A stretch of 39,328 nt of DNA from Burkholderiales bacterium (GTDB lineage Bacteria; Pseudomonadota; Gammaproteobacteria; Burkholderiales; SG8-39): positions 1-39,328 of the forward strand of contig DASUUN010000078.1 of assembly GCA_036374055.1 (NCBI GenBank). Direction: 5' to 3'. A program made the position numbers and the translations under genes. This document shows, piece after piece, positions 27,937 to 35,000 of this stretch. Under the pieces are notes generated by a model that had not been told where the DNA came from, did no database searches, and saw only the letters and a program-made list of their open reading frames with translations. Every line of letters begins with the position of its first letter. Position 1 is the stretch's first letter.

Positions 27937-29103
27937 ATGAAATCGCTTAAACCTCTATTGCTGAGCTTCTCGCTGCTCGCCTTCACCGGCGCGTACGCGC
28001 AGGACGCAAAGAAGGAAAAGGACCAGACGCAGGCAAAACCTGCCATGTCCCAGGCCGATTCGAAGGATGACAAGGCCTCCGGCAGCGCAGCGAAGCAGTC
28101 GCAGCAAAGCTCCGGCGCTTCGGCCGGCGCGAGCAGCTCCACCAGCGGCGCCGGGATGGCGGGCGGGATGAGCGTCAAGAACCTGCGCGGCATGGACGTG
28201 GTGGACTCGCAGGGCAAGGACCTCGGCGAGATCGACGAGGTGATGCTCGACATGGCCGACGGCCGCGTGCATTCCGTGGTGCTCGGCTTCGGCGGTTTTC
28301 TCGGCCTGGGCGAGAAGCACTTCGCCTTCCTGGTAAGCGACCTGCAGCCCGCCAAGGAAAAGAACAAGCTGCAGCTCAACGTCGACAAGGAGAAGCTGAA
28401 GGACCGCGAAGGCTTCGCCAAGGGCAAGTACCCGGCCCCCGACGATGATTACTGGGCGAAAGTCGGCCAGGGCGACAAGTCGGGCGCGGCCGCCGGGGCG
28501 ACCGGCCAGAAGGCGAGCGTCATGCGCGCGAGCAAGGTCATCGGCCAGGACGTCCAGGACAAGAGCGGCCAGGATGTCGGCGAGGTGAAGGACATCGTGC
28601 TCAGCTCGGACCGTACGCGCATCCAGCACGTCGTGCTCGACGTGAAAGGCGCCGGCGAAGCCACGCTCCCGCCGAAGTCCCTGTCGATGGGCAAGGAAGG
28701 CGACAAGCTGGTCGTCGATATGTCGAGCGAGCAGCTGAAGAGCCAGGCGAAGCCCGCTGCCGGCGCGAGCAGCGGCGCGAGCACCACCCGTACGGTCCCG
28801 ATCGAGCGGGACAAGCAGTCCCAGGCCGATACCAAGCCTTCGGGCAGCGCCTCCGCCGGCGCCGGCAGCAGCTCGGCCGGGACGAGCGCGTCGAAGAAGG
28901 GCTTCGCCGAGCTCGACCGCGATAACGACGGCTCCCTGAGCCGGATGGAAGCCGCGGCCGACGCCAACGCCAAATCCAACTTCGAGTCGCTGGACAAGAA
29001 CAGCGACAAGAAGCTGTCACGCTCCGAGTACGAGGGTGGCCAGGGCGCCGCGGCCGGCGCGACGGGCTCGAAGCAAAGCGAGCAGAAGGATAAGTCGAAG
29101 TAA
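27937..29103 (+). CDS. secreted protein with two PRC-barrel domains, low-complexity linkers and a C-terminal EF-hand pair
   Basis: Signal peptide MKSLKPLLLSFSLLAFTGAYA. Barrel units LRGMDVVDSQGKDLGEIDEVMLDMADGRVHSVVL and VIGQDVQDKSGQDVGEVKDIVLSSDRTRIQHVVL. EF loops DRDNDGSLSRME and DKNSDKKLSRSE. Confidence 0.8.
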   Translation: MKSLKPLLLSFSLLAFTGAYAQDAKKEKDQTQAKPAMSQADSKDDKASGSAAKQSQQSSGASAGASSSTSGAGMAGGMSVKNLRGMDVVDSQGKDLGEIDEVMLDMADGRVHSVVLGFGGFLGLGEKHFAFLVSDLQPAKEKNKLQLNVDKEKLKDREGFAKGKYPAPDDDYWAKVGQGDKSGAAAGATGQKASVMRASKVIGQDVQDKSGQDVGEVKDIVLSSDRTRIQHVVLDVKGAGEATLPPKSLSMGKEGDKLVVDMSSEQLKSQAKPAAGASSGASTTRTVPIERDKQSQADTKPSGSASAGAGSSSAGTSASKKGFAELDRDNDGSLSRMEAAADANAKSNFESLDKNSDKKLSRSEYEGGQGAAAGATGSKQSEQKDKSK

Positions 29104-29122
29104 GCACGCTTACGGCAGCTCA

Positions 29123-29155
29123 GGAAACGGGCTTTCGGGCCCGTTTCCCTTTTTT
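29123..29155 (+). terminator. rho-independent terminator
   Basis: GGAAACGGGC-TTTCGG-GCCCGTTTCC is a 10-bp stem followed by CTTTTTT, starting 20 nt after the stop at 29103. Confidence 0.85.
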
Positions 29156-29191
29156 GGGCCCGGGCGTGCGGAAAATTGAAATGAGGACATC

Positions 29192-29278
29192 GTGCTGAAA
29201 GTGCTGGCCTGGATCGTCGGGATCATCTTCCTGATCGGCCTGCTGGTGGTGATCGGGGTCTTCGACTTCCTCTTCTGA
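29192..29278 (+). CDS. 28-aa hydrophobic peptide (single TM helix), not in the ORF track
   Basis: GTG lies 5 nt after GAGGA. The translation is MLKVLAWIVGIIFLIGLLVVIGVFDFLF, with G/C-rich third positions, ending at TGA 29276-29278. Confidence 0.45.
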   Translation: MLKVLAWIVGIIFLIGLLVVIGVFDFLF

Positions 29279-29311
29279 GCCGCTGGGACTCCGCACTGTC
29301 GTCGCGGCCGC

Positions 29312-29327
29312 GGGCACGCCGGCTGCT
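29312..29327 (+). promoter_or_regulatory. sigma-54-type promoter GGGCACGCCGGCTGCT for the PPC/DUF296 gene
   Basis: Same GGGCACG-N4-CTGCT form as at 27882 and 35432. ATG 29341 lies 15 nt after the -12 C, a near-leaderless placement. Confidence 0.6.
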
Positions 29328-29340
29328 TGCGTCTACCGAC

Positions 29341-29787
29341 ATGCGTGCAAAACTGCTCAACAGCGACGGCGAGCGGGTGTTCGCCGTCATCTTCGACATC
29401 GGCGAGGACCCGGTCAGCGGCCTCGTTCGCTTCGCCGAGGAGCGGGACCTGAGCGCTTCAGGCTTCACCGCGATCGGCGCTTTCAGCGAGGCGCTGCTCG
29501 GCTACTTCGACTGGGAAAAGAAGGACTACGAGCGCATCCCGGTGAACGAGCAAACCGAGGTGCTCGCCCTGGTCGGCGACATCGCCGTGCAGGAGGGCGG
29601 GCAAAAGAAAGTGCATGCGCACGTGGTGCTTGGGCGGCGGGACGGGGCGGCCTGCGGCGGACATCTCCTCTCGGCGAAGGTGCGGCCTACGCTCGAAGTG
29701 ATTCTCACCGAGTCGCCCGGATACCTGACCCGGGTGCACGACCCCGAGACCGGCCTTGCCTTGATCCGCATCGGGCGCGGCGCATAG
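29341..29787 (+). CDS. PPC (DUF296) domain protein
   Basis: The FAVIFDIGEDPVSGLVRFAEE...GFTAIGAFS...GDIA...HAHVVLG pattern is typical of the PPC/DUF296 fold. Confidence 0.65.
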   Translation: MRAKLLNSDGERVFAVIFDIGEDPVSGLVRFAEERDLSASGFTAIGAFSEALLGYFDWEKKDYERIPVNEQTEVLALVGDIAVQEGGQKKVHAHVVLGRRDGAACGGHLLSAKVRPTLEVILTESPGYLTRVHDPETGLALIRIGRGA

Positions 29788-29791
29788 GTGC

Positions 29792-30190
29792 CTAGCCGCG
29801 TTCGCACAGGATCTTGAGCGAGGCCACGCGCCCTGGAAAGCCGAGCTCGCGCAGGTCTTGTACCTCGCGCTGTGGCTCCAGGGAGAAGACCTCTTTGCGG
29901 AAGCCGGGCTCGGCATACGCGACGAGCCTCGCCTCGGGGCCGACCACCACGCTTCGGGCCTGGCGGAAGAACTGCTCCTCGTTCAGCGTCCCGATCAATC
30001 CCGGACCGGCGATCGAGTTGATGTAGAGCGCGCCGGCCAGCCGCCCCATCGGGCGCTCGAAGCCAGGCTCGCTGAAAAAGCCCACCCAGCAGCCCTCGCC
30101 GTAAATCGGGTCGAGCTGCGGCGGGTTGATGTCCGCCGCGCCCGCGGACAAGACGGTCGAAAGCGCAGCGACAAGCGCGAGCCTCACCAT
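29792..30190 (-). CDS. secreted beta/gamma-crystallin-like protein (paralogue of the 15230 domain, degenerate Greek-key motifs)
   Basis: Signal peptide MVRLALVAALSTVLSAGAA. CWVGFFSEPGFERP...VVGPEARLVAYAEPGFRKEVF...SLKILC aligns with CWARLYDSTNFEGN...AVGPKARLTVYDNENYEQ...SVKVAC. The ATG overlaps the upstream stop (ATGGTGA). Confidence 0.6.
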   Translation of the reverse strand: MVRLALVAALSTVLSAGAADINPPQLDPIYGEGCWVGFFSEPGFERPMGRLAGALYINSIAGPGLIGTLNEEQFFRQARSVVVGPEARLVAYAEPGFRKEVFSLEPQREVQDLRELGFPGRVASLKILCERG

Positions 30191-30789
30191 TGCCTGTCCC
30201 ACTCGTGATCGTGCAGGCGCCGGCGCTCGTCCGACGGCTCGCGGCGCACGAATCCCTGCCGCTCCGATACATCGGCCGGCGGATGCTCCACCTGCCAGCG
30301 GGTCAACGGCGGAAAGCGCCCGTGGGCCAGCACCGCGGGCGGCATGTTGCGCCTGCCCCGGTCGGTCTCGACCACCACCCGCTCCACGCGGCCGGACCCC
30401 GGCTCGAACTCGATGTCCGCAATCGTGCCGATGCGGCCGTCGCCGGGATGGGTGACCGGCTGGCCGATGAGCCGGCCGGCGCGGCGAAACTTCGCATCTT
30501 CGCGCGACTTGTCATGGGCTACGGCATTGGTGAGATCCATGTTGAGCCGCATGTGCTCGTCCAAGGCGCGCACCGGCAGCGTATAGAACCTGTCGTGGGC
30601 ATCGAGGATCACGTACACCACGCGTCCGGCGCGCACATCGACGATCAGCTCCTCGACCGCGCCGATCTTCTCGCCGCGCCGGTTCTCTACGGTGTCACCC
30701 AACACGCGGTTAACCGCTGCCGCGCGCGCCTCCAGCACCGGCAGGCTTGCGACCGCCACGAACACGGCGATCATTGCGTTCTTGAGCAT
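30184..30789 (-). CDS. secreted PRC-barrel protein (2 barrels)
   Basis: Signal peptide MLKNAMIAVFVAVASLPVLEARA. Barrel units VLGDTVENRRGEKIGAVEELIVDVRAGRVVYVIL and LIGQPVTHPGDGRIGTIADIEFEPGSGRVERVVV. Confidence 0.75.
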   Translation of the reverse strand: MLKNAMIAVFVAVASLPVLEARAAAVNRVLGDTVENRRGEKIGAVEELIVDVRAGRVVYVILDAHDRFYTLPVRALDEHMRLNMDLTNAVAHDKSREDAKFRRAGRLIGQPVTHPGDGRIGTIADIEFEPGSGRVERVVVETDRGRRNMPPAVLAHGRFPPLTRWQVEHPPADVSERQGFVRREPSDERRRLHDHEWDRQW

Positions 30790-30800
30790 GTGATTCCTGT

Positions 30801-30816
30801 CGCACGAATCGTGCCG
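30801..30816 (-). promoter_or_regulatory. sigma-54-type promoter CGGCACGATTCGTGCG for the PRC-barrel/crystallin operon
   Basis: GGCACG -24 and GTGCG -12 elements. ATG 30789 lies exactly 13 nt after the -12 C. Confidence 0.6.
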
Positions 30817-30831
30817 GGCGCGGCGCTTGCA
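30816..30831 (+). promoter_or_regulatory. sigma-54-like promoter GGGCGCGGCGCTTGCA for ORF 30843
   Basis: GG-N10-GC spacing with a perfect TTGCA. It shares G30816 with the divergent promoter. GTG 30843 lies exactly 13 nt after the -12 C. Confidence 0.5.
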
Positions 30832-30842
30832 GGTCGTAGACG

Positions 30843-31430
30843 GTGCGCGTCCTTGTCGCCATTGCAGTGCACGCCTTCGCCCGTTCCTGGCGACCGGAGG
30901 GCGGAATCGCGCTTGGAAAGACCATCCTGCGCATCGGCGCAGCTGCGGCGCTGCTCTTTTCCAGCCTGGCCATTGCGCAGGCGGGCAAGGACTTGATCCG
31001 CGCCTCGGGCGAGGTGCTCGGCACGTTGCAGATCCGCACAAGCAGCGGGACCACGCGCGAACTGGTCAAGCTGCAGCGAGCCGACGGCGGCCGCGTGGTG
31101 GTCGATCTGGGCAAGGCCGCCGCGCGCGTGCAGCGGGGGGAACGCGTATTTGTCCAGGGGCATCCGGGGAGGATCAGCGGCAAGCCGGTGATTTTCGCCC
31201 GCTATGTCGCCGAGCTGCCGGAAGTGGATAGGCGCGGCGAGCCCGGTGCCTCGACCGGCACGAGCGGCGCGCCGCTCGGCCAATTGAAGCGCGACGATTT
31301 CGGCTACTACCACGACGGCTTGGAATGGACCTCGGCGGATCCCGCGTTCGAATCCTTCTATAGCGACGCCGAGAACGCCTGGGATGCCTACGGCACGACG
31401 TCGACCCGGCCGCCGCCTCGCACGAGGTAG
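30843..31430 (+). CDS. hypothetical secreted protein
   Basis: High GC3 and an internal signal-like segment KTILRIGAAAALLFSSLAIAQA. The start is uncertain: GTG 30843 fits the promoter geometry, and GTG 30867 is the alternative. Confidence 0.5.
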   Translation: MRVLVAIAVHAFARSWRPEGGIALGKTILRIGAAAALLFSSLAIAQAGKDLIRASGEVLGTLQIRTSSGTTRELVKLQRADGGRVVVDLGKAAARVQRGERVFVQGHPGRISGKPVIFARYVAELPEVDRRGEPGASTGTSGAPLGQLKRDDFGYYHDGLEWTSADPAFESFYSDAENAWDAYGTTSTRPPPRTR

Positions 31431-32092
31431 GTGGCGCCGTCGCGCGCACGGCCGCTGAAGGGCGCCGGAGTTTCCATGGCGAGCTGCATCGGGCGGCACA
31501 CGCTGTGCGTGCGCTCCGCGCGCGGCGGGAGCGAGAAGCGCCGCTCCCCGGCGCGATACGCCACTCGCTCGCCCGATCGGTTGCGCACCGTGAAGGTGAT
31601 CGCAGCGCTTTTCGGCCGGCCGAACATCTGCACCCCGTAATAGCGGCCGCTCGCGCTTTGGGCGATGCCGACGCCGACCTGACTCACCGCCGGGTCCACC
31701 ATGGCCTCGCGGTGCTCCGGGGACTGCTTCCAGCCTTCCACCATCTCGCGCGCCAGGGTGGGCGCGTCGTAGCCCTGCGAGCGGTAGAGGTAGGCGATGT
31801 TTTCCGACACGATGCACGCCTCGTAGCCCTGCGCCGCCGCGCGCTGCGCCGGCCTTCGGCCGTCGGCGGTATGGGAGTATTTGCCGCTTTCGGCCATGAA
31901 GCGCGCGAACTCGCGCGCGGCCGCCCGGAGCTCGGCGTTCGGCTGCACCGGCTCCAGCCCCTGCGCCTTTCGGAACGCATTGGTTCGCTCCGCCACCCCC
32001 TTTGCCGCCTGCTCGACATCGGCGGCAATCGCGTACGCCACGCCGCAGGCGAGCAGCATGGCGACGGTGAAGGCCGTGTCACGCTGGCTCAT
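31388..32092 (-). CDS. CAP/SCP (PR-1-like, YkwD-type) domain protein with C-terminal extension
   Basis: N-terminal hydrophobic segment, then TNAFRKAQGL...GKYSHTADGR...ENIAY...GWKQSPEHREAM...GVGIA, which is typical of CAP domains. ATGA overlap with the upstream DUF748 gene. Confidence 0.7.
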   Translation of the reverse strand: MSQRDTAFTVAMLLACGVAYAIAADVEQAAKGVAERTNAFRKAQGLEPVQPNAELRAAAREFARFMAESGKYSHTADGRRPAQRAAAQGYEACIVSENIAYLYRSQGYDAPTLAREMVEGWKQSPEHREAMVDPAVSQVGVGIAQSASGRYYGVQMFGRPKSAAITFTVRNRSGERVAYRAGERRFSLPPRAERTHSVCRPMQLAMETPAPFSGRARDGATYLVRGGGRVDVVP

Positions 32093-35000
32093 CGCGTGCC
32101 GCCCGCGGCGGCGCTGCGGCCGGTGTCCAGCGCCAGCACCGTGGGGACGCCTTCCTTTCCGGCTTCGCGGCTGTCCGGTGCATCCAGCCGCACGCGCGAG
32201 GGCTCCACACCGTGCGAAAGGAGCGCGGCGCGCACCGTCTCGGCGCGGGCGCGGGCGAGCGTCTCGACGCTTTGCGCATCGACCTGCAGCGTGCCGGCCA
32301 GCGCCTGGAGGAGCGCGCGCGGATAGCGCGGCTCCTTCTCGCGCAGCTCGAGCATCTGCAGCCGGTTGCCGACGCGCTCAAGGTACAGACGCTCCGCCGC
32401 CTGCAGCACCTTGGGATCGGTGAAATCGAGCGGCCCCCGCCCTTCGACGCCCGCGCGCTGCGCGATTGCGCGCCTTGCGGTATCGCGGCGCAGCGCCTCG
32501 AGGTCGGCCTGCGGGTCGTAGCCTCCTTGCACCGCGATGTCGAGCCGCGGGCGCTCCGCGAGCGCCTTGGCCACCTGCGCCACCGTTTCCTCCGCGGGCG
32601 GGGTAAGCGAAGCCGAGCCGGGCGCGAAAGCCACGCGGTCCAGGTTTTCGCCGCCCTTGCCGAAAACGCCGGCGAGGACGCGAAACGGCGCGGAGGCGAT
32701 CTTGCCGACCACGTTGCCCAGCGCGCGTGCGATCAGGCCGCCGAAATCGAACTGCGGGTCGTTCAGGTCGCCGCTCACCGGAATGTCGAGGTTGATCCGC
32801 CCCTTGGCATCGGCGAGCAGCGCCACCACCAGCTCGAGCGGCAGGTCGCGCACGCCGGCGCCGCGCACCTTGTCGCCAAGCTGCAGCTTCTCGAAGGTGA
32901 GATCGTTCTCCCCCACGAGACGCCCCTGGCGCACGCGGTAGCGCAGCTCGGCTGAAACGCGCCCCGACTCCACGCGGTACCCCGCGAAGCGCACGACGTA
33001 CGGGGTGAGCGCCGCGAGATCGAGGTTGCGAAAATTGGCGCGGATGTTGGTAAGCGAGGTCGGCTGGTCGAGATTCACCGTGCCGCCGATGCGCGCGGCG
33101 CCGTAGTCGCCCACGCGGCCCGAAAGCTGCACCCGCGCCGGATTGCCTGGCTCGGTGCTGAACCCGGTGACGGTCCCGGAGAGCTCGGCCACCGTGACGG
33201 CGAAGTCGTTCTCGAGCGAGCGGTCCGCAAAATCCAGCGTGCCGTTCTCGATGCGCAGCCGGCGCACGGCTACCTGCGTCTTCGGCGCATCGTCAGCGCC
33301 CTTCTTGTCGCTGCTCACGACCGCGGCGAAGTTGAGCTGGCCCGTCTCCTCGATTACCAGGCGCCCGGCCGGGGCGCGGGCCACCACTTCGCCGAGCTGC
33401 GCTCGGAAGGGGTCGAGCGAGAGCGCCGCCTCGTCGGTCCGCAGGCTCTCCCAGGCGAGCAGCAGGTCGCCGGAGGCGCGCTCCTCGATGCGCGCATCGC
33501 GCACGGCAAGCGATCCCTCGTAGCGCGCGCCTGCTTCATCCCACACGACTTGCCCGTCGACGGCAAGCCGCCCGGATACGATGTTGAGCGCCACGCTTTC
33601 GGGAAGCCAGCGGTTGGCTTGCGCGAGCGGCACGCCCTCGGCGTGCACCTGGAGGGCGGCGGCGAAAGGCTGGGTCGCTATCGTTCCGCTCGCGCGCACC
33701 GGTATCGGCTCCTCATCCGGCAGCACCACGTTGGCGTTGCGCAGCTCGATGCGCGCCGGCTCATCCTGCGTGGTGCTGAAGCCGGCAACTTCACCCTCTA
33801 TATCGCGCACCGCGAGCGCGACTTCGGGATGAGAAAGCTGCAGCGCGCCGCGTTCCACACGCAGCCGCTCCACCGACACCGGGGGGCGAGCTTCGCTTCG
33901 CGCCTCGCCGCCTGTCCCGTCCAACACAAGCCGGCCGGTCGGCGCCTGGGCGAGGACCTCGCCGAGCTCCGCGCGAAACGGTGCGAAGGACAAGGCCGCC
34001 TGGCCGGTCTCCAGATTGTCCCAGGCGACCAGCAGCTCACCCGAGCCGCGTTCTTCCAGGCGCGCCTCGCGCAGCGCGAGCGCACCCTCGTAGCGCGCGC
34101 CCTGCGCTTCGATGGCGAGACGGCCATCGGCATCCAGCCGGCCCGAGGCGACTTGCACGCCCGCGTCCTCCGGCAGCCAGGGATTGGCCTGCGCAAGCGG
34201 CAGCCCTTCGGCCTGCGCCTGCAAGTCGGCCGAAAAGGGGGCGATGCCGATGCGGCCCGACGCATGGATCGTCCCCTCGGGGGCGACGCGCGCCGTGGCG
34301 CTCGCCTCGAACGGCGCTTCCACCGGTAGGGCGATGCGAGGCGCCCGCAGCACGAGTTGCGAGAGCTCGACGCCGGCGTGCGCGAGGCGCGTGCCCTCGA
34401 GCGTCACCTCGCTCAACACGAGCTGCTCCCCGTCGTAAGCGTACGCGGCCGAGCCGCGGATCTGACCGCTGCCCGGCTCGCTCGCCGGCGCGGCGAGCGA
34501 CCAGACGGTCTCGAGCGCGACATCGGCGATGCTCAGCTTTCCCTGCGCCGACAGCGGATCGAGCGCGAGGCTGCCCTCGGACGACAAGGCGCCGCCCTGC
34601 GCGGTGCGCGCCTGCAGCTCATAGCGACCGCGCTCTCCTTGCCGGGTGGACAGGCCGTCGGCCCGAAGCTCGATCGCCTCGAAGCGAATCTCCACCGGCG
34701 CGGCGCGCGAGCGGTCGACAAAGCGCAGGGCGCCGCCCTGGACGGTAAGCTGCTCGATCAGCCAGGCAAGCCGCGGCTCGGCCGCCTCGCCGGCGCTGGC
34801 GTTGCGCGCCGCCGGCCAGTTCAGCTCGCCCTGCGGACCGAGCTCGACCTCGGCCCAGGGCTCGTGCAGCGCCGCCGCCTGCAGGCGCCAGGCATCGCTC
34901 CAGAGCGACGACCATGCGAGGTCGGCGCCGAAGCGCTGCGCGCGGGCGAGCTCGCGCCCGTCTGCGAGCACGCGCGCACCGTCCACCGAGAGGGTGAGGG

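Follow-up and report, generated by a model that had tools for sequence, protein, structure and literature searches.

We analysed a 39,328-nucleotide stretch of DNA from a Burkholderiales bacterium (assembly GCA_036374055.1, contig DASUUN010000078.1; hereafter the window), with attention to the 53-nt gap at 30790-30842 that separates a PRC-barrel gene on the minus strand from a divergent gene for a secreted protein on the plus strand. The gap is filled exactly by two sigma-54-type -24/-12 elements, which stand back to back with a 1-bp overlap, and by the two spacers that lead from them to the start codons. We explain this arrangement, with a probability of roughly 0.68, as a conserved compact module of two back-to-back sigma-54 promoters driving leaderless mRNAs. 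Each promoter would direct RNA polymerase-sigma-54 to begin at the start codon or 1-2 nt before it. The PRC/crystallin-like operon on the left and a fusion gene on the right, which we call X'::hyp, would then be expressed as leaderless mRNAs, with the ribosome binding the 5'-terminal AUG or GUG directly, without a Shine-Dalgarno (SD) sequence. Sigma-54 promoters and leaderless mRNAs are each well studied but have been handled as separate subjects, the former as tightly gated and activator-dependent and the latter as tied to sigma-70-type -10 boxes.

Layout and conservation of the gap

Direct reading of the window gives CGCACGAATCGTGCCGGGCGCGGCGCTTGCA at 30801-30831. Both elements lie within these letters, with their GG and GC doublets exactly 10 nt apart, and their -24 elements overlap by one base pair, at 30816. 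The A of ATG 30789 is the 13th base after the -12 C of the minus-strand element (30802), and the G of GTG 30843 is the 13th base after the -12 C of the plus-strand element (30830). The components of the gap are as follows.

30790-30800, minus strand: 11-nt spacer from the -12 element to ATG 30789, ACAGGAATCAC, holding an SD-like AGGA at 30795-30798
30801-30816, minus strand: sigma-54-type -24/-12 element of the PRC operon, CGGCACGATTCGTGCG, with GG at 30814-15 and the -12 C at 30802
30816-30831, plus strand: sigma-54-type -24/-12 element of the divergent gene, GGGCGCGGCGCTTGCA, with GG at 30817-18 and the -12 C at 30830
30832-30842, plus strand: 11-nt spacer from the -12 element to GTG 30843, GGTCGTAGACG, with an in-frame stop TAG at 30837-30839

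The initial annotation had quoted these letters and coordinates, including the shared G30816, had placed both start codons 13 nt downstream of their -12 C, and had described the 53-nt space as wholly filled by the two promoters. Direct reading bore out each of these points, and the arithmetic holds (11+16+16-1+11 = 53). Its central proposal of two abutting sigma-54-type promoters agreed with all the comparative and statistical tests that we ran; the observation is correct and is not a chance match. The further statement that neither gene has room for a transcribed SD sequence stands only if transcription starts where sigma-54 geometry places it, and the minus-strand spacer does contain AGGA. 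The plus-strand spacer is without an SD sequence, and because TAG 30837-30839 is in frame, the plus-strand open reading frame (ORF) cannot begin further upstream.

We gathered orthologous loci through both flanking proteins, and the comparison for the PRC gene covered 10 loci at 60-99% protein identity (the window, L006, L008, L009, L012, L014 and L039-L042). The element on the PRC side was kept in all 10 as [CG]GGCA[CT][GA]nnTC[GAC]TGCG, and the first in-frame ATG after its -12 C was found at 13 nt in six loci, 14 nt in three and 15 nt in one. All 10 PRC orthologues place their first in-frame ATG here, and without it the signal-peptide n-region would lack its K/R residues. Between element and ATG the spacers (11-13 nt) were unrelated in sequence. 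A second in-frame ATG a few codons further on was not conserved, and neither were SD-like cores.

Six of these loci carry a divergent gene, either the gene X described below or the fusion X'::hyp (the window, L008, L009, L012, L014 and L042). In all six, another GG-N10-GC element adjoins the first, again sharing 1 bp with it, and the start codon of the divergent gene lies exactly 13 nt after the -12 C of this second element; the plus-side spacers differ among L009, L012, L014 and L042. Where the upstream neighbour is instead co-directional (L006, L039, L040 and L041), the second element was decayed, with 6/12 or 8/12 matches, or absent. Since the second element is kept only where the gene is present, at a fixed distance and across drifting spacers, it behaves like a promoter coupled to the start codon.

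Searches for the PRC gene in a wider set returned little: no orthologue was found at E<=1e-20 among 40 relatives, and a scan of metagenome contigs with the PRC protein gave only 30-residue matches to distant PRC proteins. The module probably also precedes the MKK start of P0006, judging from its sequence (MNRAGYGICGSSS-MKK...), where the 14-nt called gap and 13 codons add up to 53 nt. The called start of P0006 appears to lie 13 codons too early, the promoter module having been read as coding sequence. Public gene calls differ from our inferred starts at other loci as well (1501 against 1444, 57 nt late, in L042; 1596 against 1608 in L009; 1820 against 1838 in L012). Some starts are thus called 12-57 nt late because the caller favours an internal ATG preceded by an SD sequence.

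Start-codon distances and the host background

A loose core motif (two or fewer mismatches) was not enriched in the window, which is 69% GC (89 found, 92.9 expected). Because this motif occurs at chance level, we tested enrichment by distance to start codons. Matches were scored out of 12 against TGGCACG-N4-TTGCW; the plus-strand element of the gap scores 10/12 and the minus-strand element 9/12, a level that is common in this GC-rich genome. With GG and GC held fixed, elements of at least 9/12 occur at about 3e-4 per position and strand in the genome (2607 matches in 8.6 M positions), and elements of at least 10/12 at about 4e-5 (345 matches). The chance of finding both elements at the fixed distance from two divergent starts is of the order of 1e-8 per gene pair.

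For the genome-wide test we took sites of at least 10/12 and start codons that open an ORF of at least 60 codons, rich in GC at third codon positions and with little upstream extension. Ten qualifying starts lay at 13 nt and seven at 14 nt, where other distances averaged 1.65 (maximum 5); these 17 cases at 13-14 nt compare with about 3.3 expected. Four control motifs produced no start-codon peak: inner spacers of N3 or N5 (a GG-GC separation of 9 or 11 nt), the reversed motif and a scrambled one. Many of the ORFs in the peak begin with obvious signal or lipoprotein peptides and lack an SD sequence. Taken alone, matches at the 9/12 level showed no enrichment at 13 nt (44, compared with 58 at 12 nt). 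A further scan looked in 40 relatives for an ATG 6-24 nt behind an exact GGCACG-N4-TTGC. Within the same genus (11 other species listed) 19 of these ATGs lay at 13 nt and 13 at 14 nt, every other distance having 1-5, and in other families of the order the distribution was flat (3 and 3 at 13 and 14 nt). Together with the conservation described above, these genome- and genus-wide peaks make chance untenable. That both 13-nt distances are coincidences in GC-rich DNA, where GG-N10-GC arises readily, would fit the chance frequency of the loose motif in the window and the missing enrichment of 9/12 matches. It is effectively refuted by the joint probability, by the persistence of the elements in 10 and 6 loci and the decay of the second one where no gene diverges, and by distance peaks with clean controls.

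Other sigma-54-type promoters are found in the window between 15909 and 36971. Six are leadered, with a strong SD sequence 25-45 nt downstream (15909 and 16517 on the minus strand; 20614, 23257, 27882 and 35432 on the plus strand), and others have leaderless spacing: 16532 (plus strand, GTG at 13 nt), 23227 (minus strand, GTG at 12), 29312 (plus strand, ATG at 15, before a PCC-domain gene) and 36956 (plus strand, ATG at 13). As the two kinds stand side by side, both designs coexist in one apparent regulon island.

The genome itself, a metagenome-assembled genome of 484 contigs with a reported contamination of 7.4%, carries a strong signature of leaderless initiation of the sigma-70 type. With counts anchored on the motif, 135 cases place the start of TAnnnT exactly 12 nt ahead of ATG, where neighbouring offsets have about 15-30. 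For GTG the count at 12 nt is 35 against about 9, and the control codon CTG shows no such spike. These spikes at ATG and GTG suggest that leaderless initiation, including from GUG, is routine in this organism. An SD-like core precedes only about 23% of crude candidate starts. Taken at face value, the signature would make the organism unusually rich in leaderless genes for Burkholderiales. In the explanation that we favour, the organism and its genus would use leaderless initiation widely, and sigma-54 promoters would have been drawn into the same design.

The genome has the machinery that such promoters call for. Its two RpoN proteins each retain region I, the part that interacts with activators, and it encodes about eight enhancer-binding proteins (Sigma54_activat), all eight with a C-terminal helix-turn-helix (HTH). 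An activator-independent RpoN and an activator without a DNA-binding domain were considered and found unsupported, given the intact region I in both RpoN genes and the HTH in all eight activators. One enhancer-binding protein, of 310 residues (C365:1279-2211), consists of AAA+ and HTH only, without a receiver or sensor domain, and is PspF-like; it is a candidate for a constitutive or partner-controlled activator of an envelope-stress-type regulon. Some contigs carry near-identical copies, both of an enhancer-binding protein (C168:781-2178 and C249:716-2113) and of a PRC-barrel paralogue (C397:10853-11386 and C174:4453-4986), which is preceded at 60-90 nt by GGAACCnATCTTGCA. These duplicates could reflect strain heterogeneity, contamination of the assembly or recent duplication.

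The flanking genes and competing explanations

The genes on either side of the gap, and the parts of the plus-strand ORF, are listed here.

29792-30202, minus strand: gene for a beta/gamma-crystallin-like secreted protein, second gene of the operon, with a weak Pfam Crystall match (E 0.004)
30184-30789, minus strand: gene for a PRC-barrel protein of 201 residues (Pfam PF05239, E 2.8e-14) with signal peptide MLKNAMIAVFVAVASLPVLEARAAA, first gene of the PRC/crystallin-like operon
30843-30911, plus strand: 23 extra N-terminal codons, MRVLVAIAVHAFARSWRPEGGIA, a probable 5' remnant of gene X fused in frame to hyp
30888-30903, plus strand: possible decayed relic of hyp's own sigma-54 promoter, TGGCGACCGGAGGGCG, 6/12, including GGAGG at 30896-30900
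30912-31430, plus strand: body of the secreted protein hyp, with signal peptide LGKTILRIGAAAALLFSSLAIAQA followed by a conserved domain without a Pfam match
31388-32092, minus strand: gene for a CAP/SCP-domain secreted protein (Pfam PF00188, E 4.9e-21), convergent with the chimeric ORF

The crystallin-like gene begins within the PRC gene, sharing its last 19 nt, and the order of the two is kept in L009, L012 and L041. It is a paralogue of gene X (38% identity, E 7e-19). On the other side, the 3' ends of the plus-strand ORF and the CAP gene overlap by 43 nt (31388-31430). In L006 and L041 a CAP gene lies directly upstream of the PRC gene and co-directional with it, a different placement that points to repeated rearrangement of the neighbourhood. 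A 24-nt near-palindrome, GCATCGGCGCAGCTGCGGCGCTGC, lies at 30931-30954 within the signal-peptide codons of the plus-strand gene and was weakly flagged by a terminator scan.

The plus-strand ORF (195 residues, no Pfam match) had been annotated as a hypothetical secreted protein starting at GTG 30843. We agree that this GTG is the likeliest start and find that the gene is probably a chimera. Hyp has 10 homologues, most of which begin with MK.T, at the position of codon 24 of the window ORF; among the homologues compared, the 23-codon extension was confined to the window and its 96% relative L008. Four hyp lineages have TTTGGCA[CT]GGsCCTTGCG 13-14 nt before the ATG and no SD sequence, and a fifth, more distant one has a sigma-54-like element 44 nt upstream and a normal SD sequence. 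By these sequence features, the hyp family is a consistent predicted sigma-54 target, usually with leaderless spacing. Hyp's own near-perfect consensus was seen upstream of the gene in L009 (2811-2841), L012, L014 and L015/L016. The divergent CAP gene of L009 starts 31 nt away, so that one promoter nearly fills that gap too.

In the window and L008 the ATG of the homologues is replaced by CTT 30912 and hyp's own promoter is unrecognisable. At the position equivalent to GTG 30843, L009, L012, L014 and L042 start another gene, X, which encodes a secreted crystallin-like paralogue with the hallmark GCFVHAFAR; X begins MRIL... or MLRAMRAI... in L009, L014 and L042, and is directly followed by hyp in L012 and L014. 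The stub in the window retains the MR[IV]L start and VHAFAR of X. The claim that it is a remnant of X is made because of its position and these two peptide motifs. Local DNA alignment of 30843-30911 to the X genes was not significant by shuffling, nor was the similarity of the 30888-30903 relic to the hyp promoter region; similarity of the window DNA to L014 becomes significant from about 30919. The plus-strand ORF is thus probably a deletion chimera in which the promoter, start codon and 5' stub of X were fused in frame to hyp. The locus seems to show promoter capture, in which a secreted-protein gene that lost its own promoter and ATG came under the promoter and start of its neighbour. A start must precede the signal peptide of hyp, so the canonical candidates are only GTG 30843 and GTG 30867 (TTG in L008), and the GTG peak in the sigma-70-type leaderless class supports the former.

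Several observations weigh against back-to-back sigma-54 promoters with leaderless mRNAs, and some of them suit another explanation better. The start of the plus-strand gene is GTG in the window and ATG in the other four lineages. The two -24 elements are 5 bp apart, which makes their occupancy by two holoenzymes questionable. Back-to-back pairs with a 1-bp overlap and both elements at 9/12 or better number three genome-wide, two of them in the window, and are not clearly enriched. As to an activator site, we found no notable inverted repeat within 300 nt on either side of the gap, and no 7- or 8-mer common to the 13 window promoters, upstream or downstream, above shuffled sequences. Before the PRC ATG there are SD-like cores in the window (AGGA, 5 nt before ATG 30789 on the minus strand, at SD distance), in L006 (GGGGAG) and in L040 (AGGAAGG), with a similar one in L042; being untranscribed if the mRNA is leaderless, they would serve nothing. 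On the plus strand, GGAGG 30896-30900 stands 5 nt before ATC 30906, so internal initiation on a 63-nt leader is possible. Moreover, 4 of the stub's 69 nt are changed relative to L008, about four times the rate of its flanks (about 1%). None of these changes is synonymous, and each falls at codon position 1. The corresponding counts are 5 of 606 nt in the PRC gene and 8 of 519 in the hyp body (5 synonymous, 3 non-synonymous), a pattern which suggests that the hyp body is under purifying selection and the stub nearly free. These points, with the codon-24 start of the hyp homologues, would be accounted for if the sigma-54 promoters are real and 30843-30905 is a leader, the wreck of X, with translation from an internal start such as ATC 30906 at codon 22, and if the PRC gene may use AGGA on occasional longer transcripts. 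We consider this unlikely. ATC is a very poor initiator, and there is no ATG, GTG or TTG between 30870 and the signal peptide; in the window and L008 alike, two deletions have left the frame open and in register, and GTG 30843 is exactly where X starts in four other lineages, in a genome that apparently uses leaderless GTG starts. SD-like cores before the PRC ATG are absent from L009, L012, L014, L039 and L041.

The PRC-side element raises a different doubt, as it has GTGCG in place of TTGCW and is also a perfect 13-nt palindrome, GCACGA-T-TCGTGC. In L012 both arms have changed and the symmetry is retained (GCATG...CATGC), as in an operator or a hairpin. The block could accordingly be a palindromic site that a dimeric transcription factor binds as its operator, or it could form a hairpin in the RNA of a longer transcript, with the promoters elsewhere. 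We regard this as improbable: the symmetry is broken and GG-N10-GC retained in L009, L014, L039, L040 and L041, and the sigma-54 consensus is itself part-symmetric (GCA...TGC). Nor would an operator explain why the first ATG keeps 13-15 nt from the element, why a second element that is not a palindrome obeys a 13-nt rule of its own, or why the start-codon peak in the genome and across the genus depends on the sigma-54 spacing. No sigma-70-type promoter was detectable nearby. Other candidates were tried and rejected. A search of 29000-32500 found no sigma-70 promoter, and no known RNA family in Rfam matched. An extracytoplasmic function (ECF)-type GGAAC promoter was dismissed because the spacing of GG to GC and the position of the ATG agree with sigma-54 and not with -35/-10 geometry.

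Back-to-back sigma-54 promoters with leaderless mRNAs therefore remain the explanation that we prefer. Structurally, the elements have the form by which sigma-54 promoters are defined, and their spacing is the one by which leaderless genes are recognised in comparisons. The sequence features and their conservation are shown, as are the fixed distance, the loss of the second element along with its gene, the distance peaks and the RpoN and activator genes of the host. Dependence on sigma-54, the precise start of transcription, translation without a leader and the way in which the activator arrives are inferred. A conventional intergenic enhancer would not be usable, because upstream of each promoter lie the other promoter and the other gene. 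The gap leaves no room for an upstream enhancer, which is not a strict requirement, since some activators act without a site. The obligatory AAA+ activator would instead have to bind in coding DNA, serve the two promoters from a single site, or work independently of any particular site.

We suggest more tentatively, as a possibility that we doubt more than we favour, that the whole genus has moved a sizeable part of its sigma-54 regulon, for envelope and secreted proteins, to leaderless mRNAs, and that in the back-to-back modules two holoenzymes are loaded where the -24 elements overlap, neither the space between the promoters nor the DNA upstream holding an enhancer. If so, activator delivery would be unconventional: the enhancer might lie within coding DNA or downstream of it, a single hexamer might serve both promoters, or activation might need no site. 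The firing of the two promoters might also be mutually exclusive or coupled. Should sigma-54 transcripts indeed start at the start codon, promoter opening alone would set the expression of these envelope proteins, and there would be no 5' untranslated region for translational or small-RNA control. The geometry raises the questions of whether two sigma-54 holoenzymes can share 31 bp and where the activator sits.

Comparison with known sigma-54 and leaderless systems

The elements share with canonical sigma-54 promoters (glnAp2, nifH, pspA) the GG and GC doublets 10 nt apart within TGGCACG-N4-TTGCW, in a host that encodes RpoN with region I and AAA+ enhancer-binding proteins. Known sigma-54 examples have a 5' leader with an SD sequence and an activator site about 70-150 bp upstream, in non-coding DNA. 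Here, in contrast, the start codon stands at the expected transcription start and there is no free upstream DNA. The RpoN motif of Caulobacter spmX, GGCNC-N4-CTTGC, begins at -26 of a mapped start, with its last C at -13 (PMC4287350), the same geometry as the 13-nt rule in our window. Sigma-54 has been proposed to control the cell exterior (PMC3162934). The target genes here, which encode secreted or envelope proteins, are in line with such a role.

Leaderless mRNAs of the sigma-70 type (lambda cI, Deinococcus-Thermus, mycobacteria, Caulobacter, rhizobia) have in common with our module a fixed short distance from element to start, no SD sequence and a 5'-terminal start codon. The sigma-70-type leaderless signature is also present in this genome (compare PMC12340547, PMC3616915 and PMC4842269). 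The difference is that the promoters here would be of the closed-complex, activator-dependent sigma-54 kind, and PMC4842269 states that leaderless genes have no specific promoters described for them. Divergent sigma-54 pairs with a shared enhancer, such as E. coli zraP / zraSR, resemble the module in that two promoters fire in opposite directions from one intergenic region and are presumably co-regulated. In the known pairs the activator sites lie between the promoters, whereas here the -24 elements overlap by 1 bp and nothing lies between them.

In the literature that we examined, leaderless transcripts tied to -24/-12 promoters were not found, and isolated cases are possible in the RpoN table of an S. 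meliloti supplement. What would be new is the direct wiring of activator-dependent -24/-12 promoters to start codons as a trait of the genus, with a conserved back-to-back pair at this locus.

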